64,000 nt of DNA from an uncultured virus (IMG/VR IMGVR_UViG_3300029288_000087) (Duplodnaviria; Heunggongvirae; Uroviricota; Caudoviricetes): the IMG/VR virus record IMGVR_UViG_3300029288_000087. One strand, given 5' to 3'. The translations under genes and the position numbers were made by a program. Each line of letters opens with the position of its first letter. Position 1 is the stretch's first letter. A model generated the notes under the pieces. That model was not told the origin of the DNA. It saw only the letters and a program-made list of their open reading frames with translations, and ran no database searches. Shown here in pieces: positions 19,347-63,809 of the stretch.

Positions 19347-21758
19347 CTACTCCTTAGCCGGCTCTTCCGGAGCCGCCTCCGCCTCGGGCTCCTTCTGCTG
19401 CTTGGCGATGAATTCCGCCTGCACCTTCATGAGCACGCGCCACACGTCGTCCAGGTAGCGCTTGCCCTTGCCGGTTGCCAGGACAGTCCCGCTGGTCGCC
19501 GGGTCACTGCGCAGGCTCGCGACAAACCTGTCCTTCTCGATGACCTGGGGAATCATCACGACGGTGCTCTCGCCGTTCTGCTCGATGAATGTCTTGACCA
19601 ACACCTCGGGCGGCACCCTGTGAGAGCACGCCTCCTTGATCGTATTCACGAGCCCAGCAACCTGCTCGCGGTTGATCCCTGGGATCCAGTCGAACGAGGA
19701 CCACGGCTCCTTCTTCGGCGCGACGTTCTGCTTGGCCGCGGGCTGCGACACGGGGGTGTCTGCCGCAACGGCCTGAGCCGCCGTCACAGGCCCCTGCGGA
19801 GCCTGTTCGATGACCACTGGCGGCGGGTACTGGGGCTGCTGCACGGGCTGCTGCGGGGCCTGCCGCATCGGCTGCTGCGTGATGGACGGCTGCGTCATCG
19901 GGTTGAACGGGACCGGAGGCATGCCGGGACTGCGCGACGACATGCGGTTGTGCTCGTCTGCGCTCACCTGCGGCCCCGGCAGGTTGTCGAACGAAGACTG
20001 CACGGCTGGCCCCTCGCTGTCGGCGAACTGCACCCGGTGCACACGCCTGGGCGGAGGCAGCATCTGACGAGCCTGCTGCACGGGAGGCACCTGCTGCACC
20101 TGCACCTGCTGCACAGGAGGACTACCCTTCTGGAGCAAGTCCTTGATCTGTGGGATCAGCGTGTCGGCCTGGGAGATGGCCATGAGGATGGCCTTCTGAT
20201 ACCAAGGCGCGTTCGCCGCAGCCGCCGCCATCGCGGCCTCTTCTGGAGTCGGCCCGCCTTCCTTCTCGTCTGTCGCGATCCCGAGCGCAACGGCGGTCTC
20301 CCGAAGCTCCTGCACCTTGTTCAGAAGCGGCTTGTTCTGCTCCGCGAGGTGGGCGTTGACGAGCTGCGCCTTGCTCTGGAGATCCGCCACCGTCGCGGCA
20401 AGCTGGTTCTGAAGCGCGCGCACCTCGAATCCGTGCGCCGCATCGAGCGTCGTCTTGGTGTTCGTCTCGACCGCCTCGCGCATACGCGTTTCGCGATCGT
20501 GACTGCGCTGGATGTCGTCGAGCCGCTGTTGCCCGATGCGCTGCGCTTCTTCCATCGACCGCTTGTGCTCTTCGCGAAGGTAGCGCTCACGCCGATCGAA
20601 GTCGTCCTTCAGCTCGCGCTCCCGGCGTTCGATGATCGTATCCTTGTCGCGCATGCGATCTTCAAGTGAAGCAACACGGGTCTGCATCTCGGACCGAACG
20701 CGCTCGACCTCGCGCTCCTTCTCTCTCTTCTCGATCTCGATCAGCCGCTCGAACTCCCGCTGCCTCATCTCCATCTCGCGTGCGTGCTGCTCCTGCACCG
20801 CGCGCATGTCATCGGAGTTCGCCCCGCCGCGCACCGACGAGTTGATCAGCGCAACGGCCTTGACCATCTCGACCATGTCGTTGGGCTTCTGGCCGATCTC
20901 GGCGATCTGCCTGCGCATCTCCATCATCTCGGCTTGCTTGGCTTCGAGCTGACGTTCCAGAAGCGCAACTTGCTGCTGCGCCATCTCCTTGGTCGAGTCG
21001 ATCGCGCGCTCCTGCTGACGACCCATCACGCTGAAGACCGTATCGGGCAAGCCCTGCTGAGCCTGCTGCGGCCTGTTTGCCATGCGCTCTGCGAAGCTCA
21101 GAAATGGCGCGTAGTCTTGCGGCTGCTGTTGCTGCGGCATCTGCATGCGCATGCCCGCGCCTCCGTAGGGGCTGCCACCACCCGGGAACGTGAACACCAT
21201 AGGTCCCTCACTACTCTCGCTGTCTGCGATCGGAAGGCTCTGCATGTTGGGATCGACAGGTACGGAGAACTCCGCAACGGCAACATCCACCAGCGCGGGA
21301 GGCCCGCCCATGTTCGAGCTGTCACCTTGCTCCATCACGCCGTAGACCCGGTACTTGTACCCGCCGTAGAGCCGCAAGAACTCCTGCGTGCCGATCATCA
21401 TGTTGTGCATGCCGACGATACCGGAAACGCGCTGGCGCTGCCCCGTGCCGGGATCGAGATGCCACTCGGGCTCGATGCGCTGTACGCGCAGCTTGCCGAC
21501 CTTCCGGAGATCCGGGTACGCGCTGTACATCGTCTCAAGAGATGGGAACTTCGGCACGTTCATGCCGCCGCGGCGACGGCTGATCTCGGCACGCCGCTCG
21601 ACATCCTCCATCGGCGCGCGCGACTCGGGAAGCGATCCCATGTCGATCCCGCCCATCGGATCGTACGAAGTAGCAGCAGGACCGCCTGATCGACGGCGCG
21701 CGGGGAACGGGAGTTCGGGCAGCGGCTGTTCTTCAGCCGTCGTGGGTTCGTCGGCCAT
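19347..21758 (-). CDS. Large (803 aa) coiled-coil, Gln/Pro-rich protein
   Basis: Long E/R-rich coiled coil; PQ-rich linkers; RBS GAGGT. Confidence 0.85.
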   Translation of the reverse strand: MADEPTTAEEQPLPELPFPARRRSGGPAATSYDPMGGIDMGSLPESRAPMEDVERRAEISRRRGGMNVPKFPSLETMYSAYPDLRKVGKLRVQRIEPEWHLDPGTGQRQRVSGIVGMHNMMIGTQEFLRLYGGYKYRVYGVMEQGDSSNMGGPPALVDVAVAEFSVPVDPNMQSLPIADSESSEGPMVFTFPGGGSPYGGAGMRMQMPQQQQPQDYAPFLSFAERMANRPQQAQQGLPDTVFSVMGRQQERAIDSTKEMAQQQVALLERQLEAKQAEMMEMRRQIAEIGQKPNDMVEMVKAVALINSSVRGGANSDDMRAVQEQHAREMEMRQREFERLIEIEKREKEREVERVRSEMQTRVASLEDRMRDKDTIIERRERELKDDFDRRERYLREEHKRSMEEAQRIGQQRLDDIQRSHDRETRMREAVETNTKTTLDAAHGFEVRALQNQLAATVADLQSKAQLVNAHLAEQNKPLLNKVQELRETAVALGIATDEKEGGPTPEEAAMAAAAANAPWYQKAILMAISQADTLIPQIKDLLQKGSPPVQQVQVQQVPPVQQARQMLPPPRRVHRVQFADSEGPAVQSSFDNLPGPQVSADEHNRMSSRSPGMPPVPFNPMTQPSITQQPMRQAPQQPVQQPQYPPPVVIEQAPQGPVTAAQAVAADTPVSQPAAKQNVAPKKEPWSSFDWIPGINREQVAGLVNTIKEACSHRVPPEVLVKTFIEQNGESTVVMIPQVIEKDRFVASLRSDPATSGTVLATGKGKRYLDDVWRVLMKVQAEFIAKQQKEPEAEAAPEEPAKE

Positions 21759-21772
21759 GAGCTACCTCACCT

Positions 21773-21883
21773 GTCGCAGACATCGGCCTGTACGCCGTTG
21801 GTTTTGATAGCTCATCGAGCTTGGCGAATCCGTCATCGAAGCCGTGTTGCAGATATCGGCCTGCGCGCCATTGGTTTCGATCG
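21773..21883 (-). CRISPR. CRISPR-like mini-array 1 (repeat, 35-nt spacer, repeat)
   Basis: Repeats 21773-21810 and 21846-21883 (73-bp period). Spacer 21811-21845 matches 21960-21994 inverted at 30/35. Confidence 0.7.
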
Positions 21884-21910
21884 CTACGGGATCGTCGGCC
21901 ATGATCCACC

Positions 21911-22363
21911 TCAGTTTGGTTCAGGCTCGTCGGGCTCTTCTTCGATGACGAGATCCTTGACACCCTCGATGACAGATTCACCAAGCTCGATGAGATCGGC
22001 GAGCTGCGCAGCGATCGGAAGCCCCTGCTTCTTGGACTCCGCATGCTGCGCCTTGAAAATCTCAACGGCCTTCTCGACGAAGGCGAGGATCTTGTCGGCG
22101 TCTTCCTGTTCGAGCTGGCTCGCGCCTTCGGCCTCTTCGAGATCCGCGATCGCGTCTTCGTGGCGCACAACGGCGGCGGCGCACACTCGCACGTCTTCGG
22201 CCAGCATCTTGAGGTTCGGCAGAAGATCATCCTGGATGAAGTCGTGCAGATCGCGAGACCCCTCGTCGGTCTTCACGTCGTTGTCGATCTTCTTCGCGAG
22301 CTTGTCGAGATTCTCCAGCACCATGTCGATCTTCAGCACATCGCCTTCGGTCTCGTCACTCAT
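21911..22363 (-). CDS. Acidic helical hypothetical protein; its 3' end holds the protospacer of array 1
   Basis: 150-aa ORF with RBS GAGGT. Confidence 0.8.
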   Translation of the reverse strand: MSDETEGDVLKIDMVLENLDKLAKKIDNDVKTDEGSRDLHDFIQDDLLPNLKMLAEDVRVCAAAVVRHEDAIADLEEAEGASQLEQEDADKILAFVEKAVEIFKAQHAESKKQGLPIAAQLADLIELGESVIEGVKDLVIEEEPDEPEPN

Positions 22364-23010: not shown

Positions 23011-23039
23011 GTTGTCGCAGGAAACGCACAGCGTGTCAA
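23011..23039 (-). promoter_or_regulatory. Sigma70-type promoter overlapped by the protospacer of array 2
   Basis: TTGACA-17-GACAAC-7-ATG. Confidence 0.6.
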
Positions 23040-23045
23040 CGACGA

Positions 23046-23372
23046 TTAGGGGGTGCCTGTTTTCCCGGAGGTTGCGGATATCGGCCCGCACGCCGTTGGT
23101 TGATCGCCATGATCCTCGTTGATACGTCGCACGATACCTGCGAGTTGCGGATATCGGCCCGCACGCCGTTGGTTCTTGAGGCGCAGTATCCTCTTCGGGC
23201 GATAGCCGCAGCACAGATCGCACACGAGGAACGAGGGTTCCTTCACGGTCGAGCCCTTCAGATAGGGACCAGCGTAGAGCGTGGGGACGACGCGCCCGCA
23301 CCACATGCACGGGCGATCGGGCACAACGTCGAAAGGTTCCCACTGCACGGGGATTTTGGGCCAGTGGCTCAT
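23046..23372 (-). CDS. Small Zn-finger-like protein whose 3' end runs through mini-array 2
   Basis: CMWC...CDLC; promoter TTGCCA-17-TACCAT at 23411-23383. Confidence 0.55.
   Translation of the reverse strand: MSHWPKIPVQWEPFDVVPDRPCMWCGRVVPTLYAGPYLKGSTVKEPSFLVCDLCCGYRPKRILRLKNQRRAGRYPQLAGIVRRINEDHGDQPTACGPISATSGKTGTP
23071..23181 (-). CRISPR. CRISPR-like mini-array 2 (repeat, 37-nt spacer, repeat)
   Basis: Identical 31-bp cores at 23071 and 23144 (73-bp period). Spacer 23107-23143 matches 23015-23051 inverted at 27/37. Confidence 0.7.
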
Positions 23373-23552
23373 GATGGGCCAGATGGTATCGCAGGGTCGT
23401 ATAGTTGGCAAGGGGATGTGATGACAAATAGAGGACGCGCGGCACCAAGTGAGGGGGGGAGGACTCGGTCTGCCGCGCGCCAGATTTCGGCCCAAGGTCG
23501 CGATGCGTCTTCGTGGGCCTGAACGGTAGGGTATGCGCAACGGCCCCGCCCG

Positions 23553-24648: not shown

Positions 24649-25086
24649 TCAAGCCACCAACTTGAGCCGCGCCCTGAACAGCCGGTTCTTGGTGGTCGAG
24701 TCGTTGGCCGCATCGGTCCCAAGCACGGCATCGACGATGGCGCTCCGATCCACAACGGGCATGGCGTCAACCTGCTTCAACACGCTAAGCAGTCTCGCCC
24801 GCGCCTCGATGAGGCTGTCGATGGTGCAGCTGGTCTCGAACTCGGGGACCACAACGGCGGCATGTCGGCAGCGGTCCCGCTTCACTTCGAGGCACTTCAT
24901 GATGACGATGTGGTGCAGCCACGTGCTGACCTTGCACCTGCCATCGAAGGGAGCCGTGAGCGCCTTGATGAACGCCCACTGCACAATGTCCTCCGCATCC
25001 TCGCGGCTGGCCATGATGCGCTGCGCGGCAGCGACGAGCCGCGCCCGGTGCGCCCTGCATTCCCGATCCAACGCCTGCCTGTCCAT
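24649..25086 (-). CDS. ECF-type RNA polymerase sigma factor
   Basis: EDAEDIVQWAFIKA...FDGRCKVSTWLHHI (region 2); TKNRLFRARLKL (region 4 end). Confidence 0.8.
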   Translation of the reverse strand: MDRQALDRECRAHRARLVAAAQRIMASREDAEDIVQWAFIKALTAPFDGRCKVSTWLHHIVIMKCLEVKRDRCRHAAVVVPEFETSCTIDSLIEARARLLSVLKQVDAMPVVDRSAIVDAVLGTDAANDSTTKNRLFRARLKLVA

Positions 25087-25631
25087 CGGACAACCGATGG
25101 TAAGCACGCGCCGCGCCGCTTGCAAGAGTCGCCGCGCGCATGGATACATGATCGAGCGTTCCGACGTTCCTACGATCCATATCCTCTCATACGAGGTCGC
25201 GTCAGCGTTGTGGTAAATGCAAGCTCAACCCAAGCGCCTTCCGATCTCGCAGGCGAGGATCATGCTTTAGCGTTCTGGGTGAAGCAGAGGCTTCGATCCA
25301 ACCATCCCGCTGAAGCGGCGTCCTCCCCTTCCGATGCCATCCTCTCGGAACGAGGATACACATATCACCAACTGATCCAGATCCCGATTCGAGGAAACAC
25401 CTCGGTCTCATCCAAACGTTCGTACCCTACGGGCACTCACTGGGAACACGAAGCGTTATGGCGAATCGGGAAATACGCCACGACGTAAGGTAGATCCCTA
25501 TTAGGCCAGAAAATGGATGGGGTCCACAAGTGAAAAGTGAACGTAGCGTGCCACGATTTCAAAATAGGTAGCATAATGTGAGCGCTATACACACAAAGCG
25601 CGCGACGGATTGGTTGATAGCTGGAAGCGTT

Positions 25632-52877: not shown

Positions 52878-53436
52878 CCGCAACTTCTCGACCGAGCCGT
52901 CGCGTCGCACCGTTGTTCTCGACCTACCCGAGATATACGAACGTGCAAAGCAGATGCGCAAGGTCTTCCAGGGTGAGAAGCCAAAGAAGCGCGTAGAGAT
53001 GCCATTTACGTGGCCCAGCTACTTCGTGTACGTGGGCCGCGCGCTCTCCGAGCTGTACTTCTCCGACAAGAAGCTCAACGGCGGGAAGTGGGAGATTTAC
53101 AAGCACGTTGCGGAGGCTGGGCAGGATCTCTACGTCAATCCGAAGATCACGACGCTCATCAAGGATGACGGGCGCAAGATGCAGTACCGCGGCGACCGCT
53201 TCTGTCTGGAGGGCGCGATGCCGAAGGACATCGCCGTGCTCGCAGAGAACAGGGGCGTGCAGGTTGTGACGAAGAGCGGCGAATACTACGAGATTCGCAT
53301 GCCGCACTCCACAACGGCGGCAGCGGTGCACCCCGAGACGGGCGAGACGTTCCTGCTTGTCTACTCGAAGGAAGGTGTGCATTTCATCATCACGGGCGAC
53401 GAGCTGACGATTGGGAAGGACGGCATTGCCGGATGA
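52867..53436 (+). CDS. Hypothetical beta-rich protein
   Basis: GTG start after GGAG; MSASRNF. Confidence 0.7.
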   Translation: MSASRNFSTEPSRRTVVLDLPEIYERAKQMRKVFQGEKPKKRVEMPFTWPSYFVYVGRALSELYFSDKKLNGGKWEIYKHVAEAGQDLYVNPKITTLIKDDGRKMQYRGDRFCLEGAMPKDIAVLAENRGVQVVTKSGEYYEIRMPHSTTAAAVHPETGETFLLVYSKEGVHFIITGDELTIGKDGIAG

Positions 53437-53795
53437 GAGCCAACGACGCGCAGGTGCTTCAGGTGTGGACCGCCGCGTGGTCCTGGAAGGATGCTGCGGA
53501 GCCCTGCGAGTACGTGTTCGCCAGGACGGAGTCGGAGTGCCTGGGTCTTCTCGGGCGCAGACTTCACAAGGCCAAGAATGTGCTCGTGAGGCTCAAGATC
53601 GTGCGCAACGGGAAGCTGGCGTCCACATACTTGAAGGACGCGAAGCCCAGGGTTGTGGACATCTTCGACCCCGAGCTTCGGGATTTCGCCAAGGACTTGC
53701 TGCCCGACTTCAACAGGGCGGGTGCGGCGGTCCGAAGTTCGGACGAATACGCCGATCTCGTCGAGTGCGCCGACCTCAGTCTCGGCGACCTCTGA
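53433..53795 (+). CDS. Hypothetical protein
   Basis: ATGA coupling. Confidence 0.7.
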   Translation: MRANDAQVLQVWTAAWSWKDAAEPCEYVFARTESECLGLLGRRLHKAKNVLVRLKIVRNGKLASTYLKDAKPRVVDIFDPELRDFAKDLLPDFNRAGAAVRSSDEYADLVECADLSLGDL

Positions 53796-53811
53796 GCGCG
53801 CCCTCGGGAAC

Positions 53812-53841
53812 TTGACACCGTTGCGGATCTTGCCGTAGACT
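53812..53841 (+). promoter_or_regulatory. Promoter upstream of the core/capsid operon
   Basis: TTGACA-18-TAGACT. Confidence 0.6.
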
Positions 53842-53913
53842 GCCTCTCACGTAGCAAGAGCCTCGTTGGCCCAGGGTGACGAGTTCAGCTCCCGCGAACT
53901 GAGCGGAGTTGTA

Positions 53914-53944
53914 TTCCAACGGCGTGCAGGCCGATATCTGCAAT
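53914..53944 (+). repeat. Solo fifth copy of the mini-array repeat
   Basis: CCAACGGCGTGCAGGCCGATATCTGCAA, 26/28 identical to the array-2 core. Confidence 0.85.
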
Positions 53945-53953
53945 CATCACCCG

Positions 53954-56386
53954 ATGGCACGAGGAAGGATTTTCCGGATCACGAAGGCCCAGGCAAAGGC
54001 CTACGAAATCCTGGATCCGCCCTCGACGCGCTCGGCCCGCCCGAACCCAGGCGTCACGGCCATCATGGGGATCACCAACGGTCGCGGAGCTGCGAAGCGC
54101 GGGGCTCGCAAGGGCAAGGCTCGCAAGTCGGTCCGCATGCTCGGCGGCATCAGCTGCCCCAAGACGGCTCCGAAGAAGCACCGCATGGCAGGGGCGACGA
54201 AGCGCTCAGACTACGCGCTGCCGCAGTGCTTCCACTACCCGGTGCGCACGCGCGGCAAGGCTTCCGTCTTGAAGATCCGGCGAGCCCTGACCCGCTACGG
54301 CACGCACAAGAGCAGGTACTCGCCCGCCGTCCGCAGGCAGATCGAGCGCGGGATCGCGAAGGCTGCGAAAGAAGCCGGGATGACGAGTCCCGTGGCGATG
54401 AAGTACCGCAAGAAGTTCGCACTGGCGAATGCAAAAGGAGAAAGCCCCATGTTCGTCGTCCCCAATGCCGCGCGCAAGCGCGCAAGGCGCAAGTCCAAGT
54501 CGCGCAAGCTGTCCCCGGCTCATGCCTTCTTCTTGTACCCGACCACCAAGGGCAAGATCGGCGCGTCGGCGTCCCCGAACCGCAAGCGCAAGGCGCGCAA
54601 GGCCCGGAAGGGTGCTCGCAAGCTGAAGTTTGGCTCGCCCGCATGGCAGAAGAAGTTCAACCCGCTGTACGGCGGCAAGGGCAAGACGCGCAAGGGCAAG
54701 AAGTCGACTGCCAAGCGTCGGACCGCGCGTCGGATGGTTACGTCGGGCGTTCGTCGCGTGACCGTTCGTCGTGGCAAGGGCAAGCGCCGCAGCGGTCTGA
54801 GCGTCGCTCTGCGCAACATGTCGATCCTTCCTGCGGTGCCGAACAAGCGTCGCCGCTCGACCAAGAAGTACAGCGCCGCGTGGCATCGCAAGATGACGCA
54901 TGCGGTCGCGAACCGCTATCGTCGGCGCGCTCGGCGCAACGCAGAGGGCGAGGGGATCTTCTTCCCGGGCGAGGGCGGAGGTTCGTTCATGGACGAGCCC
55001 TCCACCATCATGTCCGAGGCGCAGGAGAAGAAGCTCGCTGCTGCCGCCACTGCCGAAGGCATCGCTCAAGACATGTTCAAGACTCAGGCGGATTTCGACG
55101 CGTGGTTCGCGAACATGTACAAGAGCAAGACGTTCCGCAAGTTCTACATGTCATTCAGACGAAGGCGCACTGCGCTCTCCAAGCGAGGTAGGAAGATGGC
55201 AACCAGGAAGAAGGGCAAGAAGGCTGCGGGCCGCAAGCCTCGCAAGGGCAAGAAGGCTCGCAAGGCACGCAAGGGAACCCGCAAGCTGAAGTTCGGCTCG
55301 CCCGCATGGCGCAAGAAGTACGCGCGCAAGATCGCGGCGGGTCGGCGCAAGGCGAAGCGGCACGGCACGCGCAAGGCTGCGAAGCGTCGCAAGAGCGGCT
55401 CGCGCAGCAAGCGCCGGGTCACGCGTCGTCGAGGCACCGCACGTCGTCGGAGCGCAGCGCGCCGCCGCACGGGTGGTCGTAGGCTCAAGTTCGGCTCGAA
55501 GGCGTACAACAAGAAGTACGCGGCCAAGCGCAAGCGCAACCTTCGGTCGGCGAAGCGTCACGGCAAGCGCAGGGCTCGCCGGAACTTCAGCTTCCGTGCC
55601 ATCCCGAACCAGCTGCTCATGCGCGTCAAGGCCATGGCGATCCCTGGGCTCATCGCGCTCGGTGGCTACGCCATCCATCGCGTTGTGACCAAGGTTCTGT
55701 CCAAGGCCATCGGCGGCACGGTCACGAGCTACGCCGAACCCCTGAGCGGGCTCGTCGCGATCGCGGCTGGCACCTGGGCGGTTGGCAAGTTCCTGCCGCA
55801 GCACTCTCATGCTGCGATCATGGGCATGGCCGTCAGCTTCGGCGCGTTGCTCCTCAAGAGCTTCCTGCCCGACGTTGCGACCTACCTGGGCATGGGCTCG
55901 GTCGGATCGCAGAACCAGCGCGTGCGCTGGGGCATGCAGGGACCGGAGTTCATGCAGGCGGCTGCTGGCCCGGAGTTCATGCAGGCGGCTGCTGGCCCGG
56001 GGTTCCTCCAGGCGGCTGCTGACTACTACCAGCCCGCGAGCGGGATCGGCGAGTACGTCAGCGATGGTTCGCTCTCTCCCGTGAGCGACTTCGGCGAGTA
56101 CGTCGCGAGCAATCTCGACGTGAGCGGCTGGGGTGACTACGAGGTGAGCACCCAGTACCAGACCGGCGCGGACGGCTACGGAGCCATCAACGACGGGATC
56201 CAGCCGGGCGGCAATCTCGATCAGCAGTTCAACATCATGGAAGCGGCGGCGGGGCTCGGTCTGAACAGCCCCGGCAGCTCGTCCACCTACGTCCCGCACG
56301 AGGGCATGCGCAACGTGGCCTCTGCGGAATCGAGCGACAGCTCGGGCGTGTTCGATGTCGGCGGAGGCAACGGCGTCCTGGGCTGA
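53954..56386 (+). CDS. Very Arg/Lys-rich protein with TM block and acidic Gly-rich tail; putative DNA-condensing core (poly)protein
   Basis: About 540 aa basic region with repeated PN/AN/RN and LKFGS motifs, then 3 hydrophobic helices, GPEFMQAAA x3 and GEY repeats; start codon uncertain. Confidence 0.75.
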   Translation: MARGRIFRITKAQAKAYEILDPPSTRSARPNPGVTAIMGITNGRGAAKRGARKGKARKSVRMLGGISCPKTAPKKHRMAGATKRSDYALPQCFHYPVRTRGKASVLKIRRALTRYGTHKSRYSPAVRRQIERGIAKAAKEAGMTSPVAMKYRKKFALANAKGESPMFVVPNAARKRARRKSKSRKLSPAHAFFLYPTTKGKIGASASPNRKRKARKARKGARKLKFGSPAWQKKFNPLYGGKGKTRKGKKSTAKRRTARRMVTSGVRRVTVRRGKGKRRSGLSVALRNMSILPAVPNKRRRSTKKYSAAWHRKMTHAVANRYRRRARRNAEGEGIFFPGEGGGSFMDEPSTIMSEAQEKKLAAAATAEGIAQDMFKTQADFDAWFANMYKSKTFRKFYMSFRRRRTALSKRGRKMATRKKGKKAAGRKPRKGKKARKARKGTRKLKFGSPAWRKKYARKIAAGRRKAKRHGTRKAAKRRKSGSRSKRRVTRRRGTARRRSAARRRTGGRRLKFGSKAYNKKYAAKRKRNLRSAKRHGKRRARRNFSFRAIPNQLLMRVKAMAIPGLIALGGYAIHRVVTKVLSKAIGGTVTSYAEPLSGLVAIAAGTWAVGKFLPQHSHAAIMGMAVSFGALLLKSFLPDVATYLGMGSVGSQNQRVRWGMQGPEFMQAAAGPEFMQAAAGPGFLQAAADYYQPASGIGEYVSDGSLSPVSDFGEYVASNLDVSGWGDYEVSTQYQTGADGYGAINDGIQPGGNLDQQFNIMEAAAGLGLNSPGSSSTYVPHEGMRNVASAESSDSSGVFDVGGGNGVLG
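55940..56020 (+). repeat. 27-bp tandem repeat x3 (GPEFMQAAA)
   Basis: GGMCCGGAGTTCATGCAGGCGGCTGCT repeated; third copy degenerate. Confidence 0.9.
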
Positions 56387-56515
56387 GCCAGGGCGAAGTG
56401 ATCGGATCCGGATAGTGGCAGGAGCAAGCTAGGAAACGTCAGTCTGGAGAGCCAGCGGCATAGAGGAACCAGCCTCTCAAATCATGGTACCGCTGGCAGA
56501 AAGAGAAACGCAGTC

Positions 56516-57280
56516 ATGGCAAAGATTCTCAACATCCGCGAACGTGTTCATCAACCCTTTCGTGACGCGCTGTGTCGGACAGCCGGTCTGTTTCAGGGTG
56601 CCCTGAATCAGACGACCGACTTGTTCATCACGCAGGGGCGTGACGAGGGCTTCACGAACCTCAAGACGAGCGCCGTGCTTCCGAACGACTCGTCCATGAT
56701 CATCCTCGCGGCGAGGGTGCTTCAGTGGTTCCGCGCTCCGGTGCGCCGCAACTTCAATCCGGATGGCACCGTTCTGACGAACGGCGACTACGGTCCCATC
56801 GGCCTCGCGGCGTGGGTGTGGCCGAACGGTGCGGGCGCAGTCGCGCTCGGCAACGCCCCGGCGAACTACGAGGACGTGTACCGCATGCACTGGCAGTGCG
56901 CCGAGGGTCTGTTCTGGACGATCGGCGCTGGCGAGAAGGACTCGCTGCGCAGCATGCCGACGATGTACTTCCCCATGGGCGGCGGTCTGCACGGGGACAT
57001 CGGCGGGGCGACGGACCTCATCCACTTCAACAACGGCTCACCGAGCCACACGTCGATCCTTCGGATCGCGCGCGCTATCACCATCACCCCGCGCCAGCTG
57101 ATCAAGGCGCAGGTGACCGCCGTGTCGTACCCGGCTGGTGGAAACCAGACGATCTTCGGCACTTCGACGGCGCAGGGGCGCGACATGCTGAACCCGATCA
57201 GCAACCTGAACTGCGTCGATGCGATGGGCAAGGTCGTTGCCCTCGTGATCGACGGGTTGCTGAGCCGCGACGTTCAGTAA
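56516..57280 (+). CDS. Putative major capsid protein, paralogue 1 (jelly-roll inferred)
   Basis: QPFRD...LF...TNL...LP pattern; strong codon bias; lies after the core protein; near-duplicate follows. Confidence 0.55.
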   Translation: MAKILNIRERVHQPFRDALCRTAGLFQGALNQTTDLFITQGRDEGFTNLKTSAVLPNDSSMIILAARVLQWFRAPVRRNFNPDGTVLTNGDYGPIGLAAWVWPNGAGAVALGNAPANYEDVYRMHWQCAEGLFWTIGAGEKDSLRSMPTMYFPMGGGLHGDIGGATDLIHFNNGSPSHTSILRIARAITITPRQLIKAQVTAVSYPAGGNQTIFGTSTAQGRDMLNPISNLNCVDAMGKVVALVIDGLLSRDVQ

Positions 57281-57296
57281 CCAGAACAGGGCAGCC

Positions 57297-57327
57297 GCCC
57301 CGGAGACCCGATCTCGCGCTCCGGGGC
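57297..57327 (+). terminator. GC-rich hairpin between the capsid paralogues
   Basis: GCCCCGGAG-N13-CTCCGGGGC; no U-tract. Confidence 0.5.
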
Positions 57328-57358
57328 GTCGGTCCATCACTGGAAAGGAAGGCTCCTC

Positions 57359-58177
57359 GTGGCCAAGATTCTGAACATTCGAGAGAGGGTTCACCAGCCC
57401 TTTCGCGACGCGCTGTGCCGCACGGCGGGCCTCTCGCGAGGCAACCTGAACCAGACAACCGACCTGTTCATCGCGCAGGGCCGGGACGAAGGTTTCACGA
57501 ACCTCAAGACGAGCGCCGTACTTCCGAACGACGCGTCCATGATCATCCTCGCGGCCCGCGTCATGCAGTGGTTCCGCAGGCCGGTCCCTCGCGATATGGC
57601 CGATGCCACCAACGTCACCCTGAACGGTGACTACGGGATGATCGACGGAACGGTCCCGTTCGCGTGGCCGAATGCGGTCGGTGGCGTAGCAGAGGGAAAC
57701 GCTCCTGGGCTACACAACGATGTGTACCGGTTGCACTGGCAGTGCGCCGAAGGTCTGTTCTGGACGATCGGCGCTGGCGAGAAGGACTCGCTGCGCAGCA
57801 TGCCGACGATGTACTTCCCGGCAGGTGGCGGGCTTCACGGCAAGATCGGCGCAAGAACAGGCATCATCTGGTGGTTCGACAGGCAGGGGCAGTACGTCCA
57901 CTTCCATGCCCCGCTGATCCACTACAACAACGGCTGTCCGACGCACACCGCGATTTTGCGGCTCGCGCGCGCCATCACCATCACCCCGCGCCAGCTGATC
58001 AAGGCGCAGGTGACGGCGGTCCGCTATCCCGATGGCGGCAACGCCACGCTTTTCGGGACAACGACCGCCAATGGCCGGGACATGCTCAACCCGATCGACA
58101 ACCTCAACGCCGTCGATGCGTGCGGCAAGGTCGTGTCCCTGATCCTGGACGGCCTCCTGAGCCGTGACGTGCAGTAG
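57359..58177 (+). CDS. Putative major capsid protein, paralogue 2
   Basis: Same first 24 aa and DGLLSRDVQ end as paralogue 1; GTG start; extra loop GIIWWFDRQGQYVHFHAP. Confidence 0.55.
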   Translation: MAKILNIRERVHQPFRDALCRTAGLSRGNLNQTTDLFIAQGRDEGFTNLKTSAVLPNDASMIILAARVMQWFRRPVPRDMADATNVTLNGDYGMIDGTVPFAWPNAVGGVAEGNAPGLHNDVYRLHWQCAEGLFWTIGAGEKDSLRSMPTMYFPAGGGLHGKIGARTGIIWWFDRQGQYVHFHAPLIHYNNGCPTHTAILRLARAITITPRQLIKAQVTAVRYPDGGNATLFGTTTANGRDMLNPIDNLNAVDACGKVVSLILDGLLSRDVQ

Positions 58178-58279
58178 CCGGATGCGGGCAGACGCGCCCG
58201 TAAACGGTCCTCAAGTCTGATTGGTCTCGCGCCGGGCGGCAGCGTCGGCCACCCGGCGCTCCGCAAGGAGCGAACCAAA

Positions 58280-59266
58280 GTGATCAACGAAGCGGCACTT
58301 CAGCAATTTCTCAACCAGATCCAATCCGCCGCCAACGGGGCAGCGAAGATGGCCCGAGACGGCCTCGCCGCTGCGCAGGACGCGCGGGCCACGGCTGCGC
58401 AGCTCCGTGGTGAGCACGCGGAAGCACAGAAGAAGATGCAGGAGTGGGACTCCAAGGTTGGGGGTCTCAAGATCCGGTCTTCGGTCGGCGCGGGCATGGG
58501 GCGACCCGACCTCCTGATGATCGAGGACATCCCCGGTCGCCGGATCCCGTTCGACGTGATCGTTCCGCTCGGCATCCCCGCGAACCTGACAACGTCGGTG
58601 CCGGGGACCTATCAGGTCTCGATGGACGGGCCGTTCGTGGCGACGAGTCGGTTCGCCATCTTCGTGTCGAGCTACACGTTCCAGGTCACGGTCCAGTCTT
58701 CGACGACGCGGTTCGTGGGCCGGTCGTTCGGCAGGCAGAGGCCGATCAGCTCCGTGAACGACATCATGGACGCGATGAGCGGCTGGGCCAACACGAACTT
58801 CGACGCGGACACCTGGGCATGCCCGGCAACGCTTCCTCAAGAGGCGTCGATGGCGATCCCGGTCAACAAGTCCGGGTTCCGCACCATGGAAGGTGACTTC
58901 TACATCCAGGTGCGCGATCAGGCATACCCCCGACAGAACCAAGCCGTTCCGTCTGGCGTGTGGGCTCCTGGCTTCAAGCAGTCGATGGGCCTGTCGGTGC
59001 TCGACTACTGGGAGAAGGGCACGACGATCCAGATCGATGTCGAGCCCGCTCACGTCAACAACCCGCCCAACGGCAACATCGCATCGCTGTTCGGTACCTA
59101 TCCGTACCTGGACTCGCAGTACGACGTGCACGAGGGCATCATGTACCCGCCGTATGCGTGCACTGGCGTGACGAGCGATTCGGTCACGCGTAACCCGATC
59201 GGGACACTGATCTGCGGCTACCACGGCTTCCGGATCCTGCATCCCGCAGGCGTTGCGGTGAGGTAA
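58280..59266 (+). CDS. Putative minor capsid protein (N-terminal coiled coil plus beta domain)
   Basis: RBS AAGGAG; beta-rich; ends GYHGFRIL. Confidence 0.5.
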   Translation: MINEAALQQFLNQIQSAANGAAKMARDGLAAAQDARATAAQLRGEHAEAQKKMQEWDSKVGGLKIRSSVGAGMGRPDLLMIEDIPGRRIPFDVIVPLGIPANLTTSVPGTYQVSMDGPFVATSRFAIFVSSYTFQVTVQSSTTRFVGRSFGRQRPISSVNDIMDAMSGWANTNFDADTWACPATLPQEASMAIPVNKSGFRTMEGDFYIQVRDQAYPRQNQAVPSGVWAPGFKQSMGLSVLDYWEKGTTIQIDVEPAHVNNPPNGNIASLFGTYPYLDSQYDVHEGIMYPPYACTGVTSDSVTRNPIGTLICGYHGFRILHPAGVAVR

Positions 59267-59267
59267 C

Positions 59268-60041
59268 ATGGCCCAGTATCCCCCGGCCAACGTGTGCCCG
59301 GCCACCCCGGTCGGCCCGACTTCTGCGATGCCCGGCGGCGGGATCGCACCCGGAGACATCAAGCGAACGCTGGAGCTTGCGGGGCCGTTCTCTGCGTACA
59401 CGCGGCACCCTGAGCTTGAAGACTTCGAGCAGATGTTCCGCGTCGAGCCAGACGACAGCTGGTTCTCGGTCGATAGGTCACCGAACAGCCCGATCCAGTT
59501 CGAGATCGCGGCGGTGACGACGGGCGACAACCAGATGCTCTTCATCTACGACTACTCGGTGCAGGTGTTCGGCTTCTCCGGGATCAACGCTCACGACTTC
59601 GAGCCGTTGGAGGACGGGCGGCACTCGGGCGCGTTCGGCTACGTGCTCAGAATCAACGGACGGTCCCCCGGGGCCCTTCACTACCGGCTCGACCCGGTCT
59701 CCCCGAACCTTCGCCCGATCGCTATCCAGCTTCAGGGTGCGTGGCCGAACCCTACGGCCATCCCCGGGCCCGACCCGTACGCGCGGGCCCTCGCGGACCA
59801 GTTCGCGTCCTCTGCTGGCTTCGGCGCATCCATCCATCCCCAGAGCCCGGGGAGGTTCGGCGCGCACAACGCGAAGTTCACGCTGTTCGTACAGCCGAAT
59901 CAGGCCCTGGACGTGACAGGCGTGATCTTCAACATGATCGAGAGCCCCATCGCATTCATCCAGGCGAGACTCAGCGGCTACGTGTGCTCGGTCAACCTTG
60001 GCAACAAGATTCTGGCTGACATGCGATCCTGCCTGCGCTAG
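59268..60041 (+). CDS. Putative minor capsid / penton-like beta protein
   Basis: Beta-rich; ARLSGY C-terminal strand. Confidence 0.45.
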   Translation: MAQYPPANVCPATPVGPTSAMPGGGIAPGDIKRTLELAGPFSAYTRHPELEDFEQMFRVEPDDSWFSVDRSPNSPIQFEIAAVTTGDNQMLFIYDYSVQVFGFSGINAHDFEPLEDGRHSGAFGYVLRINGRSPGALHYRLDPVSPNLRPIAIQLQGAWPNPTAIPGPDPYARALADQFASSAGFGASIHPQSPGRFGAHNAKFTLFVQPNQALDVTGVIFNMIESPIAFIQARLSGYVCSVNLGNKILADMRSCLR

Positions 60042-60138
60042 TTTGGGATCTTCCGGCCCTGGTGTAGAATCGAGACTCCTGCGGAGGCAGCGCAAAAGCC
60101 CGAGCAGACCCTGGATCGATCTACATCGGGGCCACTTC

Positions 60139-61086
60139 ATGCAAACACCCGCATCGTCAGGATTCAATCTCACGCGCTGGTACTTCTACGCAGACGCGGA
60201 GAGTACGAAGCAGGCCGCGTGGTCCGTGGACAGGGACGCGCTGTACGTCGTGCGCTTCTTCGTCAAGAACTGGAGCCGGGAGTCGCAGCTCTCAACGAGC
60301 GGGGGAGCAAGCGGCAGCAGCTGGAAGCTGTTCAAGAACCTGTGCGGCGTTCTCGCGCGAAGCATCGAGCGGTACACGGTGCGCGGCGTGACGATGCTGC
60401 ATGTCGCGAAGATGACCGATCAGATCGGCGTGCTCGCCCCCCTCTGGAGCCTTGATCGTCTTGGATGGATGGACACGGACGAAGGCTCGTGGATCATCGA
60501 TCTGGTGATCAGGGCAGATGACGACCAGACCATCTTCAAGCCAGAACTCGGGGTATGGACCGCCGAAGTTGCAAAAGCGCTTGCGGGAGCAGGGTACCAA
60601 AGCCCTTCTGTCCACGTCATGGGCATCGTTACGCTTCATTGCGGACCGAGCACTTCGGTATGCAGGCTCAACACCCCACAGGACTCCACTCCGGAAATCA
60701 CAGCCGAGGTCGAGTCGTACTGGATGGGGATGCCAGACCTGATACGCGTCACGCTTCCGAAGGCGGAGCTGGATGCCGGGAAGACCGAGCCCCATACCGA
60801 GCTTCTCGACCCGTACGTGGACTGGTCAACGAAAAGGAGCTGCATCGGCTACGGCGGCGCGCAGTACGCTATCGGGCTTCACGACCACATCGGCCTGTAC
60901 GGCGAGCTGAAGCCCATCTTCGAGTGCTCTGGGACGAAAGAGACGATCCTGGACGACATCGCGAAGGCGGTGCCGAAGGCCGCTGCCACCGTGGCTGGCT
61001 TTTCGACGAGCCAGAAGATCGTGGTCGGGATTTTTGTCCTCGCGGGCTTCGTGATTGGAGTGAAATGGCGTAGAATGCGCGTATGA
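60139..61086 (+). CDS. Hypothetical protein with C-terminal TM
   Basis: IVVGIFVLAGFVIGVKWRR. Confidence 0.7.
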   Translation: MQTPASSGFNLTRWYFYADAESTKQAAWSVDRDALYVVRFFVKNWSRESQLSTSGGASGSSWKLFKNLCGVLARSIERYTVRGVTMLHVAKMTDQIGVLAPLWSLDRLGWMDTDEGSWIIDLVIRADDDQTIFKPELGVWTAEVAKALAGAGYQSPSVHVMGIVTLHCGPSTSVCRLNTPQDSTPEITAEVESYWMGMPDLIRVTLPKAELDAGKTEPHTELLDPYVDWSTKRSCIGYGGAQYAIGLHDHIGLYGELKPIFECSGTKETILDDIAKAVPKAAATVAGFSTSQKIVVGIFVLAGFVIGVKWRRMRV

Positions 61087-61508
61087 GTTGCCCATCCTGC
61101 ATCATGGCCCTATCCGGGACGGACGGTTTCGACCCCTCCCCTACCAAGAACACCGCCCTGGGCGCAGTGGTTGGCGCTGCGGCAGGCTTCCTGCTGGCCG
61201 GAAGGCGATACCGCTGGGCTGGCCTCGCCGCCGGGGCAGTTGCGGGCTATCTGCTGGCCCCAACCGTCGTGCAGAGGGTCGCCAGCGCCTCCAGCCGCCC
61301 CGCTGCGGCCCCCGCTGCCCAGCCCCCGCCTCCTGAGCTGCTGCCGCCAGGAGGACGGCCTCCAGCCGCCAAGCTGACATCTCAGGCGATCCGCATCATG
61401 CCCGCCACAGCCTTGCAGCCTCCGCCCGAAATCACGCAGCAGACCGAGACGGACTCGTTTCTGGATGAGTGGATGCGGGGGCCTGACTCGGGGCCGCTTT
61501 CGTACTGA
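61083..61508 (+). CDS. Glycine-zipper two-TM protein
   Basis: LGAVVGAAAG / GLAAGAVAG. Confidence 0.75.
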   Translation: MSCPSCIMALSGTDGFDPSPTKNTALGAVVGAAAGFLLAGRRYRWAGLAAGAVAGYLLAPTVVQRVASASSRPAAAPAAQPPPPELLPPGGRPPAAKLTSQAIRIMPATALQPPPEITQQTETDSFLDEWMRGPDSGPLSY

Positions 61509-61522
61509 TCGGAGAATCGACC

Positions 61523-62500
61523 ATGGACCTGAAGTGCGTTGCAATCAACGTCGGTGCGGTAGCTCTCGGGGCGTATGCGGGGTACAGGTTCGTGCCCGGC
61601 CACAAGAAGGTTGGCGCTGCGGCGGGTGCTGCGGGAGGATTCGCGATTGCGTCCTTCTTGCTCGGCTGCAAGCTCTGGGATGAAACCCCGGTCATGGTCG
61701 CACTGCCTGCGACGCCTGAAGGTGTCCCGACGACGCCTCCGATCCTTCAAGCGATCAGCCCGGACGGAGCGCCGATGCTCACTCCCAAGCCGCTGATCGT
61801 TCCGGCGAAGACGTTCAAGCTGCCGTTGACGTTCAGCAAGACTGTCATGCCCACCCAGATTGCCCCGAGCGGGTCCGGGCTCTCCACACTCGTCGCGAGG
61901 TTGCAGGCCGGGATCGCAAGCGCGATGCCGGGGGCGAAAAAGGTCGCCGTCATCAAGCAGACGCAGCCCGTCAGCATCAAGCCCGCGGGAGTCATCACGC
62001 AAGAGCAGCTGTACAAGACTTGCTACGACGGGTGCATCGTCGAGCACAAGGGCCAGTGGAGCCCGAACATGTGGCTCTACTGCGAGAGGACATGCAAGGA
62101 GCAGACTGGCCTGCCTCAACCGGTCAGCCAAGTGCAAGGGGCGCAGATGAAAGACCCCGCGTGCATGAAGGCGTGCAGCGACAATAACCCAGCCGACTTC
62201 ATTGCCTCGGGCATGTGCAAAGACCGCTGTCCCGTGATCACCGTCTCGTCAGGGACGCTCTCCAATCTACTTGCGCGCGCCTCCGCGGTCCTGACGCCAT
62301 CGAAGACTACGGCTTCCCCGGCGGCTGTGCCCGCGTACGCCCCGAAGCAGACTCCTTCGGCGGTATCCACCACAAGCTCTGTGGTGGCTCCGTCCTCGAC
62401 GGGCGTGTTCCGTCTGGTTGCTGCCCCCACGACGAACACGTCGAAGACGAGCATCCCAGCTGGGACTTCGGCTGGGGTGCAGCCGGTGCCGGTGACCTGA
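61523..62500 (+). CDS. N-terminal two-TM protein with Cys modules and Pro/Thr linkers
   Basis: CYDGC...CERTC and CMKAC...CKDRC. Confidence 0.75.
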   Translation: MDLKCVAINVGAVALGAYAGYRFVPGHKKVGAAAGAAGGFAIASFLLGCKLWDETPVMVALPATPEGVPTTPPILQAISPDGAPMLTPKPLIVPAKTFKLPLTFSKTVMPTQIAPSGSGLSTLVARLQAGIASAMPGAKKVAVIKQTQPVSIKPAGVITQEQLYKTCYDGCIVEHKGQWSPNMWLYCERTCKEQTGLPQPVSQVQGAQMKDPACMKACSDNNPADFIASGMCKDRCPVITVSSGTLSNLLARASAVLTPSKTTASPAAVPAYAPKQTPSAVSTTSSVVAPSSTGVFRLVAAPTTNTSKTSIPAGTSAGVQPVPVT

Positions 62501-62700
62501 TGCTGGGCGCTCTTCTCATGAACGGGCGGGTACAGAAGTACGCCAAGTTCGCGTTCGGTCTGAGAGGCAGCGACGTGCGCGACCTGGACAGCTACGGCAT
62601 CCCCGTCTGGTCGGTCGTGCTCGCATCGTTCGTCATCGGCGGCTACGTGACCCTGCGGTTCGCACCGAACTTTCTGGTGGGATGGGTGCGACCGAAGTGA
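62500..62700 (+). CDS. Small membrane protein
   Basis: FGLRG plus TM; TGATG coupling. Confidence 0.65.
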   Translation: MLGALLMNGRVQKYAKFAFGLRGSDVRDLDSYGIPVWSVVLASFVIGGYVTLRFAPNFLVGWVRPK

Positions 62701-62711
62701 GAGGATAGGGG

Positions 62712-63404
62712 ATGCCCGGACTTCTGGAGTTCTTCCGATCGGCTATCAAGGGCGGCAACGGTGCCGGTGGCCCAGAGGACTTTCGTGCAGCTGCGAACCT
62801 CATCGACGGCGCAACGTTCGTGCAGCAGACCGTGAGTGCGCTGTCTGGCGAGCGCGCGCAGGCGCTGCTGTTCGAGGTGCTGCTTCCGTGGGCGGGGCAG
62901 GTTGCGGGCTTGGCCGTGAACAGATGGACCTCGATGCGATCGGGTCGGCGATCGCACTGCCGCCTTCAGGTGAAGGGTGAGCCGTGCCGCAGAGCGAGCG
63001 CCTCAACCTGCTTCGGTTGCGGCAAGCCCGTGTGTCTCGAACACGCGTTCGTCGGATCGGACTCGACGCTGGTGTGTTGGGAGTGCATGCGCGTCGGGGT
63101 GAACACCGCCGTCAAGGGGCGCAAGCATTCGGAGCATCAGCCGCCGCCCGAGAACTGGAACTGGGACAACTCCGCCGCTCCGTCTCCGGAGGAGCAGCAG
63201 AAGAAGGACATCGGCTGGGCATACGCAACCATCGGCGTGGCCGAAACAGCGACCGATGACGAGATCAAGTCCGCGTACCGCAAGGCGAGCGCGAAGTGGC
63301 ACCCGGACCGCGCGAAGGACCCGCAGGAAGCCAAGAGCCACGCGGAGATGTTCAAGTCGATTCAGCTCGCGATGCAGACCATCAGGCAGCAGCGCAACGT
63401 CTAG
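62712..63404 (+). CDS. J-domain (DnaJ-like) protein with B-box-like Zn finger
   Basis: AYATIGV...EIKSAYRK...WHPDR; CFGCGKPVCLEH...CWEC. Confidence 0.85.
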   Translation: MPGLLEFFRSAIKGGNGAGGPEDFRAAANLIDGATFVQQTVSALSGERAQALLFEVLLPWAGQVAGLAVNRWTSMRSGRRSHCRLQVKGEPCRRASASTCFGCGKPVCLEHAFVGSDSTLVCWECMRVGVNTAVKGRKHSEHQPPPENWNWDNSAAPSPEEQQKKDIGWAYATIGVAETATDDEIKSAYRKASAKWHPDRAKDPQEAKSHAEMFKSIQLAMQTIRQQRNV

Positions 63405-63413
63405 GAGATCGCG

Positions 63414-63809
63414 ATGTTCTACAAACACCAAGCAATCCAGCCGACCCCAGGCCTCGCGTTCGAGGCCTTCGATCGCCGGTATCGCAACCCGATGATGCCC
63501 CAGCAGGCATACAGGCCGCGCGCGGCGGGCCCGGAGTTCCTGGCCACAGACGGGACCGACCACGCGTACATGACCGCGTTCCGGAGCCGCAACCCGGTGA
63601 ACCTTCGAGGCTTCGGGCTCGACGTGAACCAGCTGCTCGGGGATCAGGTGGGTCAGGTCATCGACGCGGCGATCGAGCGTAGCTGGCCCAAGATCCAGGT
63701 GAAGCTCAACGAGAGCCTCAAGCCCGTCATGTACATGCTCGGAGCCGCCGTCCTGCTTTCTGCCGCGGGCGCGACGCTGTCCTACCTCACGTACTCGAAA
63801 AGGGCTTGA
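63414..63809 (+). CDS. GxG-motif protein with C-terminal TM
   Basis: RNP x2, NLRGFG; resembles 14177..14701. Confidence 0.75.
   Translation: MFYKHQAIQPTPGLAFEAFDRRYRNPMMPQQAYRPRAAGPEFLATDGTDHAYMTAFRSRNPVNLRGFGLDVNQLLGDQVGQVIDAAIERSWPKIQVKLNESLKPVMYMLGAAVLLSAAGATLSYLTYSKRA

Follow-up and report, generated by a model that had tools for sequence, protein, structure and literature searches.

Repeats of CRISPR systems that stand in viral genomes apart from cas genes have been described in several forms. In the available part of Camara-Wilpert et al. 2023 (PMC10651486), phage solitary repeat units (SRUs) are presented as single repeat mimics within a virus, without cas genes and with a predicted promoter, that serve as RNA anti-CRISPRs (Racrs), and type V-A examples are known. 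The accessible sections of Medvedeva et al. 2019 (PMC6858448) and of a review (PMC11656645) describe viral mini-arrays of one or two spacers without cas genes, whose spacers hit array-proximal regions of close relatives while the orthologous locus of the carrier is point-mutated; stand-alone repeats are also noted in PMC6858448, their function being left unclear in those sections. Furthermore, type I-C solitary units making CRISPR RNA (crRNA)-like RNAs (crlRNAs) against nearby promoters are documented in the part available to us of a preprint (10.1101/2024.12.27.630466). Here, we describe a solitary repeat unit, referred to as the solo, at positions 53914-53944 (plus strand) of the window, which is the first 64 kb of the phage-like contig C3 (134,037 bp, 62.7% GC) from an assembly (G000) of 205 contigs and 3.57 Mb. 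While solitary repeats and viral mini-arrays are already known, the family to which this solo belongs is different in its TnpB-sized phage effector, its 24-nt pseudoknotted handle, the predominance of solos among its copies and the embedding of some units between tRNAs.

Like an SRU as described in the available part of PMC10651486, the solo stands alone on a mobile element, with no cas gene nearby and with a predicted promoter within 250 bp. Unlike the Racrs of that text, its cognate effector family is phage-borne and TnpB-like instead of belonging to a host system, and the solo is placed in the leader of an mRNA, 9 nt away from the start codon, on a contig that also has mini-arrays of the same repeat, any inhibition by it being hypothetical. 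These two mini-arrays, at 23071-23174 and 21773-21876, have the two or more repeats around one or two spacers that define viral mini-arrays, whereas the solo has no second repeat. As in the sections of PMC6858448 available to us, they come without cas genes, match array-proximal sequence and have a mutated locus of their own. However, the mini-arrays of those sections rely on host type I or type III machinery and on repeats identical to those of the host, whereas the repeats considered here are of type V, the near-copies of their spacers are inverted and flanked by TTG, and no host array carrying the repeat was detected. With crlRNAs, the solo shares a lone repeat-like sequence and, adjoining it, a spacer-like stretch that partly matches DNA close by, but the match to a promoter flanked by a protospacer-adjacent motif (PAM), which is the defining feature in the accessible part of 10.1101/2024.12.27.630466, is absent for the solo, and the near-copies of the array spacers do not lie at consensus promoters.

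The solo is a true copy of the repeat found in the mini-arrays, as the original prediction had proposed. The repeat motif, expressed as a degenerate 27-mer, occurs five times in the window compared to no occurrence in 100 shuffles, and these five are all the copies in the whole assembly, in which two further matches with 7 mismatches were taken as chance. With a covariance-model score of 48 bits (E 1e-11), the solo represents the portion of a type V CRISPR repeat that makes up the handle. On the minus strand, the remaining four copies are grouped in two pairs with a 73-nt period (23144-23174 with 23071-23101, and 21846-21876 with 21773-21803), and all five are oriented in the direction of the local genes. 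No second or degenerate repeat was detected within 500 nt of the solo (53400-54400, searched at E up to 10).

The solo folds as an H-type pseudoknot with two 4-bp stems and loops of 2, 0 and 4 nt. Stem 1 pairs 53920-53923 with 53930-53933 (positions 7-10 with 17-20 of the 31-mer), and stem 2 pairs 53926-53929 with 53938-53941 (positions 13-16 with 25-28). For the pattern scans, positions 10, 15, 17, 24 and 26 were set to N, which left the test pairs 10:17 and 15:26 free to vary. Both were Watson-Crick pairs in all 12 unique matches from IMG/VR, while in species genomes both were complementary in 7 of the 80 matches inspected, out of at least 120. A metagenome scan, in which 15:26 was fixed as A:T and 10:17 left free, returned 68 unique matches with a Watson-Crick pair at 10:17 in 66 (A:T 36, C:G 22, G:C 4 and T:A 4, besides one T:G and one T:T). 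A covariance model built from 19 copies was then run over 67 sources (412 kb), which included neither the 80 species-genome loci nor the loci duplicating viral contigs, and found 115 copies, 79 of which were distinct. Across these 79, both stems pair in 99.2% of cells, with both-sided changes in five of the eight pairs, and none of 500 shuffles and no slid register comes near this result. Only stem 1 was used in fitting the alignment, and the model did not contain stem 2. Because the patterns behind many rows fix other positions, the unbiased evidence for covariation consists of the N positions and of the divergent rows added by the model. The handle is under structural selection. In its core, the solo differs from repeats A and B of the first mini-array by G to A at position 15 and C to T at position 26, which together make one compensatory pair. 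A tmRNA or another universal RNA was considered as the identity of the repeat and rejected, as ARAGORN found nothing in 8 loci and the species-genome matches, few of which keep both pairs, resemble coding sequence or chance.

The conserved stretch begins approximately 8 nt ahead of the first stem and stops with the AAC that follows the second stem. The crRNA 5' handle of Cas12a is a short pseudoknot directly 5' of the guide, and the omega-RNA of TnpB takes its guide from the DNA next to the element. By analogy with Cas12a, the conserved span would be the handle that a type V effector keeps. It resembles both in that a short pseudoknot stands immediately before the guide on its 5' side, and it differs from both in showing no sequence likeness and in its particular arrangement of stems and loops. 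Pseudoknots are also reported for the guide scaffolds of TnpB, Cas12n and Cas12f in the part of PMC12216341 available to us, in which Cas12n (V-U4) is associated with AAN PAMs and a tracrRNA; since the repeat described here ends in CAAC, Cas12n does not fit.

A pattern scan of IMG/VR recovered the same 27-mer on G001, an unrelated 51-kb phage contig with five repeat copies that are all upstream of genes, and a looser scan extended the set to eight viral contigs (G001-G008). The 23-nt core of the solo, GGCGTGCAGGCCGATATCTGCAA, is identical to array repeats of the metagenome loci L210 (9 to 10 copies), L172 and L213. On G002, ten repeats with a 71-75-nt period and unique spacers of 35-39 nt form an array that stands directly after a 434-amino-acid open reading frame (ORF) ending in a zinc ribbon and the motif DRDVNAARNI. 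This protein matches Cas12f1-like_TNB (4e-18) and HTH_OrfB_IS605 in Pfam and guided_TnpB (2e-31) in NCBIfam, with only weak matches to the nearest named type V families, C2c8 (V-U2, 5e-9) and Cas12f2 (6e-10); its best natural match among solved structures is an ISDra2-type TnpB (9e-11). In an alignment with TnpB, acidic residues fall at three RuvC motifs (GLDVGL, IKLEKL and DRDVNAARNI) under the residue numbering that we take to apply, and therefore the effector is predicted to be an active nuclease. Arrays adjoin cas12-like genes in G002, G004, L192 and L213; the homologues are 46-53% identical, and the effectors beside arrays measure 428-439 amino acids. No cas1 or cas2 was seen next to the effector at the loci read, a systematic search not having been made. 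Metagenome protein sets contain approximately 100 clusters at 40-55% identity, nearly all of them singletons that are named 'transposase' or unnamed. Cas-delta was set aside as a comparison, its proteins of 867-936 amino acids not being relevant.

Among the eight viral records with the repeat, two (G002 and G004) encode the effector and six (G001, G003 and G005-G008) do not, G001 being rated 90% and G003 100% complete, while the other four are fragments. A scan of 185,579 species genomes with the N-position pattern gave at least 120 matches; the 80 inspected look like coding sequence or chance, for instance a single context that recurs across numerous Pseudomonas genomes, and they revealed no host array of this repeat. 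The repeat is also absent from 50,697 GenBank phage records, the array regions of G002 and L210 have no match among GenBank phages, and a literature search, with supplementary files and subscription journals outside its scope, did not find the repeat in main texts. On sequence grounds, the solo belongs to a phage-borne family of miniature TnpB-like type V systems, the effectors of which were seen here only on phage contigs. The suggestion in the original prediction that a host Cas protein would be its partner is consequently doubtful, because the effectors found with the repeat lie on phage contigs and the species-genome matches inspected resemble coding sequence or chance.

Solos are the most frequent arrangement of the repeat, with 65 of 107 unique copies, compared to 35 in arrays and 7 in tandem. 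For the most part, solos directly precede gene starts, and by crude ORF calling many are found 8-45 nt ahead of a start codon that has a Shine-Dalgarno sequence. A promoter-like site was found within 150 nt of 7/64 solos, compared to 26/650 random windows and 1/64 on the antisense strand, and no TTG or TTC recurs at a fixed upstream position across 58 non-redundant solos. The repeat also occurs in the 5' leader of the cas12-like gene itself, singly in L192 and as repeat-spacer-repeat in G004, which may reflect autoregulation; the leader repeats of G004 lie at L027:8128-8232, and the single repeat at L192:441-471 follows TTGACA-N17-TACAAT by 32 nt. Further solos are present in genomes that encode an effector, namely one at 131 kb in G004 and three more on the 100-kb L213 contig. 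A different arrangement is seen on G008 (L037:4610-4751), where four tandem 37-nt copies stand 6-9 nt apart with a compensatory stem 1 (CGUU/GACG).

Some units are embedded in phage tRNA clusters. On the minus strand of the metagenome contig L201 (175-1560), where 9 tRNAs were called, four repeat copies each begin 0-7 nt after the 3' end of a tRNA or tRNA-like sequence; in two cases the next tRNA comes 28 and 34 nt after the repeat, a layout resembling a natural tRNA-crRNA polycistron. Neither of these two tRNA-bounded guides has an exact match in IMG/VR. Likewise, the solo of G003 follows a sequence resembling a tRNA 3' end (no ARAGORN call) and precedes a tRNA-Lys by 65 nt. Engineered polycistronic tRNA-gRNA cassettes consist of guide units flanked by tRNAs. 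The units of L201 and G003 are like them in being flanked by tRNAs, from which RNase P and RNase Z could release them, and this likeness speaks for a release of single-repeat units in the form of crRNA-sized RNAs. Unlike the cassettes, they are natural and lie in phage tRNA clusters; the solo of the window has no tRNA nearby.

The two mini-arrays bear out the earlier claim that what follows the array repeats on their 3' side copies nearby DNA imperfectly, in inverted orientation and with TTG. Mini-array 1 (23071-23174, minus strand) consists of a repeat (23144-23174), the 42-nt spacer A (23102-23143) and a second repeat (23071-23101), and mini-array 2 (21773-21876, minus strand) of a repeat (21846-21876), the 42-nt spacer C (21804-21845) and a second repeat (21773-21803). 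An inverted near-copy of spacer A with its TTG lies on the plus strand at 23012-23044 (22/30 over 23015-23044), and that of spacer C at 21957-21994 (25/30; blastn 27/29 over 21960-21994, E 2e-5), within the 3' end of an ORF at 21914-22363 (minus strand). The near-copies are 129 nt (A) and 114 nt (C) away, both in register from spacer position 1, and both are the top TTG-anchored matches in the whole assembly. The RNA duplex between spacer C and its near-copy has a z-score of -7.3, with 0/600 random sites equally strong. By consensus scan, the near-copy of spacer A is not a promoter; a promoter-like site, TTGCCA-N17-TACCAT, was located on the minus strand at 23383-23411, approximately 210 nt upstream from mini-array 1.

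The ordinary arrays within the family (G002, G004, L210, L192, L172 and L213) lack such local near-copies except for the terminal unit of G002, which has a 20/24 near-copy 201 nt away behind TTC, and one spacer of G004, which matches a gene start 75 kb away (32/37). A further exception is the first spacer in the array of contig C12, a separate phage discussed below, which matches the cas12 gene of that contig in its 3' part (C12:7608-7631; inverted, 23/24). No cross-target emerged when the spacers of C12 and G002 were compared with the assembly and all loci. Because the near-copies fit the published pattern of viral mini-arrays, we read the two mini-arrays as weapons against close relatives and not as regulators; a crlRNA-type role for them is possible.

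Several further observations concern the surroundings of the mini-arrays. An ORF from ATG 23372 (23050-23372, minus strand), which encodes a zinc-ribbon-like CxxC...CxxC protein, runs through mini-array 1 in changing frames. The second repeat of mini-array 2 ends 14 nt before ATG 21758 of an 803-amino-acid ORF, which was considered as an effector and rejected as a low-complexity coiled-coil protein without a family match. ATG 21891, before the first repeat of mini-array 2 (repeat C), opens a 44-codon frame that extends through both repeats. A ribosome-binding site (RBS) followed by ATGGCCGACGA(T/A)CCC is present both before repeat C and after the second repeat (repeat D) within 21757-21913 (24/30 match), and this duplication of the RBS and ATGGCCGACGA is a sign that mini-array 2 grew by local duplication.

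The solo lies in a 158-nt gap between the stop codon (53795) of a 120-amino-acid ORF and ATG 53954 of an 810-amino-acid ORF (53954-56386, plus strand). A consensus scan of this gap revealed a predicted sigma-70-like promoter, TTGACA-N18-TAGACT, at 53812-53841 (plus strand, 10/12 positions), with 1 site found compared to 0.1 expected from 50 shuffles, in agreement with the original prediction. The match ends 72 nt upstream of the repeat, so that transcription would begin approximately 65 nt upstream of it, and a scan of the leader spacer found no terminator. Judged from these sequence features, the leader carrying the solo is likely transcribed. A sigma-54, extracytoplasmic function (ECF) or phage RNA polymerase promoter was considered by eye and rejected because of wrong spacing, a non-conserved '-35' element and base-pair covariation. 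Read as a crRNA-like spacer part, the plus-strand flank at 53945-53980 would place ATG 53954 at guide positions 10-12; this start codon is 9 nt downstream of the repeat and lacks a Shine-Dalgarno sequence. Within the assembly, the best TTG-anchored match of the flank is 16/24, which equals background, the first 20 nt of the guide have no exact match in IMG/VR, and the longest TTG-anchored seed on contig C3 is 7 nt, which is about the chance level.

The original prediction had also emphasized a structured leader, and its elements are indeed present in the predicted fold: a 5' arm (CCTCGT..GCC..GGGTGA, 53861-53879, plus strand) pairs with a 3' arm (TCACCC..ACGAGG, 53947-53964, plus strand) that holds ATG 53954, and an imperfect hairpin (53881-53915, plus strand) occupies the stretch between the 5' arm and the repeat in both the minimum-free-energy and the centroid folds. 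However, the leader arms and the inner hairpin are indistinguishable from chance on this GC-rich contig. The leader fold of -45.2 kcal/mol has a z-score of -1.97, is equalled by 10/200 shuffles and, among 400 128-nt windows drawn at random from the contig, ranks at the 40th percentile. For the arm duplex (-24.9 kcal/mol), a comparison with 600 random sites placed alike on the contig gives the 18th percentile, and p is 0.055 against shuffled flanks. Pairing between the 3' flank and upstream sequence was evaluated for 23 copies from the window and the viral contigs, 18 of which lie outside the window, and p ≤0.05 was obtained for 2 of the 23, spacer C (0.000) and the G005 solo (0.050), so that arms like those of the solo recur at that level in 1/18 copies elsewhere. 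A fold above background that is conserved in relatives, as expected for a structured leader or a riboswitch-like switch, was thus not observed. Similarly, the 3' flank of the solo had been described as an inverted copy of nearby DNA without TTG; while TTG is indeed absent, the match requires a gap (16/22 by eye) and is not above chance. The 'structured leader' should therefore not count as evidence for a switch, and the processing-dependent translational switch proposed on the basis of the closing arms loses its footing, as these arms do not exceed the genomic background.

Any function of the solo in trans raises the question of who supplies the effector. Contig C3 encodes no homologue of the G002 effector (tblastn, E up to 10), and its sole TnpB-like ORF (~125.3-126.5 kb) is 71 kb from the solo with no repeat nearby. 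The only close effector homologue of the assembly, with 36% identity to the G002 effector, is encoded on contig C12, a distinct phage of ~50 kb that is myovirus-like and encodes terminase, portal, head, sheath and baseplate proteins. There, a 428-amino-acid cas12-like gene is followed by a 15-repeat array with a different, 36-nt repeat (C12:6496-8833), which shares only an ACCAAC stretch with the solo repeat and, by our own reading, a similar pseudoknot layout. Several of the later C12 spacers are short or duplicated. As a separate observation, the TnpB-like ORF of contig C3 is part of an IS607-like unit (C3:125300-127000), in which it follows a serine-recombinase ORF with a MerR-type N-terminus, and which is unrelated to the repeat family.

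Among the functions considered, we tentatively prefer the one in which the solo is a one-repeat crRNA unit that would be loaded by a Cas12 supplied in trans, a reading that is possible but by no means probable. Type V crRNAs need only an upstream repeat. This property, the apparent exploitation of an effector by the mini-arrays and the existence of tRNA-bounded units are the reasons for our preference. In the proposed mechanism, the leader would be transcribed, and a Cas12-like effector from a co-resident phage or from the host would bind the handle, yielding a crRNA-like RNA; the 20-35 nt that follow the repeat would be its guide and correspond to the start of the 810-amino-acid gene of the contig itself. 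Contig C3 would be spared, because the end of the repeat (CAAT) occupies the PAM position, whereas a close relative that lacks the insertion and has a TT(G/C)-type PAM at this place would be cut. The solo would thereby join the two mini-arrays, as a third guide unit, in one and the same conflict between phages, and the closing stem would be incidental. A third guide unit was among the suggestions of the original prediction, and it stands as a plausible and preferred option for which no PAM-flanked target was found.

Several points weigh against the guide unit. No relative of the contig was recovered through the upstream 120-amino-acid protein in IMG/VR, four DNA runs returned the probable source contig and short unrelated pieces, and because no relative was found, there is no PAM-flanked protospacer for the solo guide. 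The assembly has no cognate Cas12, its only close homologue being accompanied by the divergent C12 repeat, and 6/8 viral records with the repeat, several of them fragments, are likewise without a cas12-like gene. The PAM itself (TTG or TTC) is deduced from three near-self matches only, and making a guide out of the leader of an mRNA would come at the expense of expressing the gene. TnpB-style insertion beside a target-adjacent motif was not seen, since no positional TTG or TTC is shared by the 58 solos. Finally, the nearly spacerless tandem copies of G008 cannot be guides and thus point to decoys, at least there.

The tandem copies of G008, with their compensatory stem 1, lead directly to the Racr-like decoy that had also been proposed for the solo, in which the handle would tie up the Cas12-like effector of competing phages and so protect the contig. 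It accords with the published description of solitary repeats and Racrs, including the promoter within 250 bp, and type V-A Racrs are shown to work in the available part of that study (PMC10651486). Furthermore, the C12 phage, which carries an effector of the same family, is binned in the same assembly, and the majority of unique copies in the family are solos. However, a decoy is odd beside two mini-arrays of the same contig that seem to use the effector, since it would blunt them. Moreover, solos also occur in effector-encoding genomes (G004 and L213) and in cas12 leaders (L192 and G004), the C12 repeat differs from that of the solo, and a promoter-like site accompanies only the 7/64 solos given above. 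We rate the decoy as somewhat unlikely for the solo. The occurrence of repeats in the 5' leader of cas12-like genes, which suggests feedback on the mRNA, speaks for a cis-acting operator, in which binding or cutting of the handle by an effector would control the downstream operon, either by hiding the AUG or by freeing it from the 5' arm. The start codon 9 nt after the repeat without a Shine-Dalgarno sequence and the many solos shortly before start codons agree with such an operator, but this closeness may merely reflect short intergenic spaces, the arms are not above background and rarely recur in other copies, and no effector is encoded on the contig. We consider this operator improbable.

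The CreA and CreR regulators and CreTA offer a related comparison for a solo that would regulate its own promoter. In such a crlRNA/CreR-type arrangement, the solo guide would send the effector to the DNA of the 5' arm (53861-53882) and throttle transcription from the promoter. The documented type I-C units set a precedent, and the arm is an inverted partial copy located 20-40 nt after the -10 box; however, the PAM position holds AACT and neither TTG nor TTC, the match to the arm needs a gap and is not above chance, and the longest TTG-anchored seed is about as long as expected by chance, which together make this by far the least credible of the alternatives. In a further alternative, the solo would be a relic or passenger that now has no function, left over as the terminal repeat of a decayed mini-array or produced by recombination, or else a structured RNA independent of Cas that another factor binds. 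The signs of local duplication in mini-array 2 are in line with this, as is the fact that terminal array repeats also abut gene starts (repeat D and the third repeat of G004). In contrast, the solo is an intact copy, the two core positions at which it departs from repeats A and B preserve a base pair, and no trace of a second repeat remains within 500 nt. As to the Cas-independent version, unrelated phages share few proteins with the contig (9 ORF matches), and therefore no common non-Cas partner is apparent; the best protein common to C3 and G001, a YspA/SLOG-domain protein, was rejected as such a partner for want of an RNA link. A relic or passenger seems to us about as improbable as the operator.

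Returning to the one-repeat guide unit, a broader version would apply to the whole family: dispersed single-repeat units, and not arrays, would be the main guide encoding of a TnpB-like phage system for RNA-guided marker exclusion, in which a handle placed ahead of a gene makes the start of that gene the guide, the carrier is spared by the repeat at its PAM site, relatives without the insertion are cut, some units are processed by way of tRNAs and the solo of the window uses a borrowed effector. We regard this generalization as unlikely, if worth stating. If solos are functional guides or decoys, a near-transposon nuclease system is used by phages against phages without adaptation genes, and a very small effector with a 24-nt handle would be available for testing. 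In either case, the solos of the family occupy mRNA leaders, the leader of the effector's own gene and tRNA clusters.

With regard to the genes around the solo, the original prediction had placed it before a core/capsid operon. Among the nine downstream ORFs scanned (53954-63806) against Pfam and PHROG, none matches a structural family, and an Atlas look-up returned noise-level scores; the sole family matches, a DnaJ domain (Pfam) and PHROG families of unknown function, both fall on the ORF at 62712-63401. Contig C3 shows no match to families of terminases, portals or capsids, so that both 'core/capsid operon' and 'late genes' are no more than conjecture. The contig encodes RecE/RecT, a primase, helicases, ParB and lysozyme-like genes, in line with a phage-like element. 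Neither tRNAs nor Rfam family matches were found in the window. An ECF-like sigma factor gene (Sigma70_r2, 4e-10) is located at 24652-25149 (minus strand) between two divergent gene blocks, and no matching promoter motif was found.

The 810-amino-acid ORF downstream of the solo has no Pfam or PHROG match. By its translation, the protein is very basic, with repeats rich in lysine and arginine and a hydrophobic C-terminal part. Two sets of internal repeats are visible in the gene, three 67-nt units at 54588-55517 that encode the lysine- and arginine-rich segments and three 27-nt tandem units at 55940-56020 that encode GPEFMQAAA. Directly after this ORF, a tandem duplication of approximately 850 bp (56514-58198, 77-81% identity) gives rise to two paralogous ORFs at 56516-57277 and 57359-58174.

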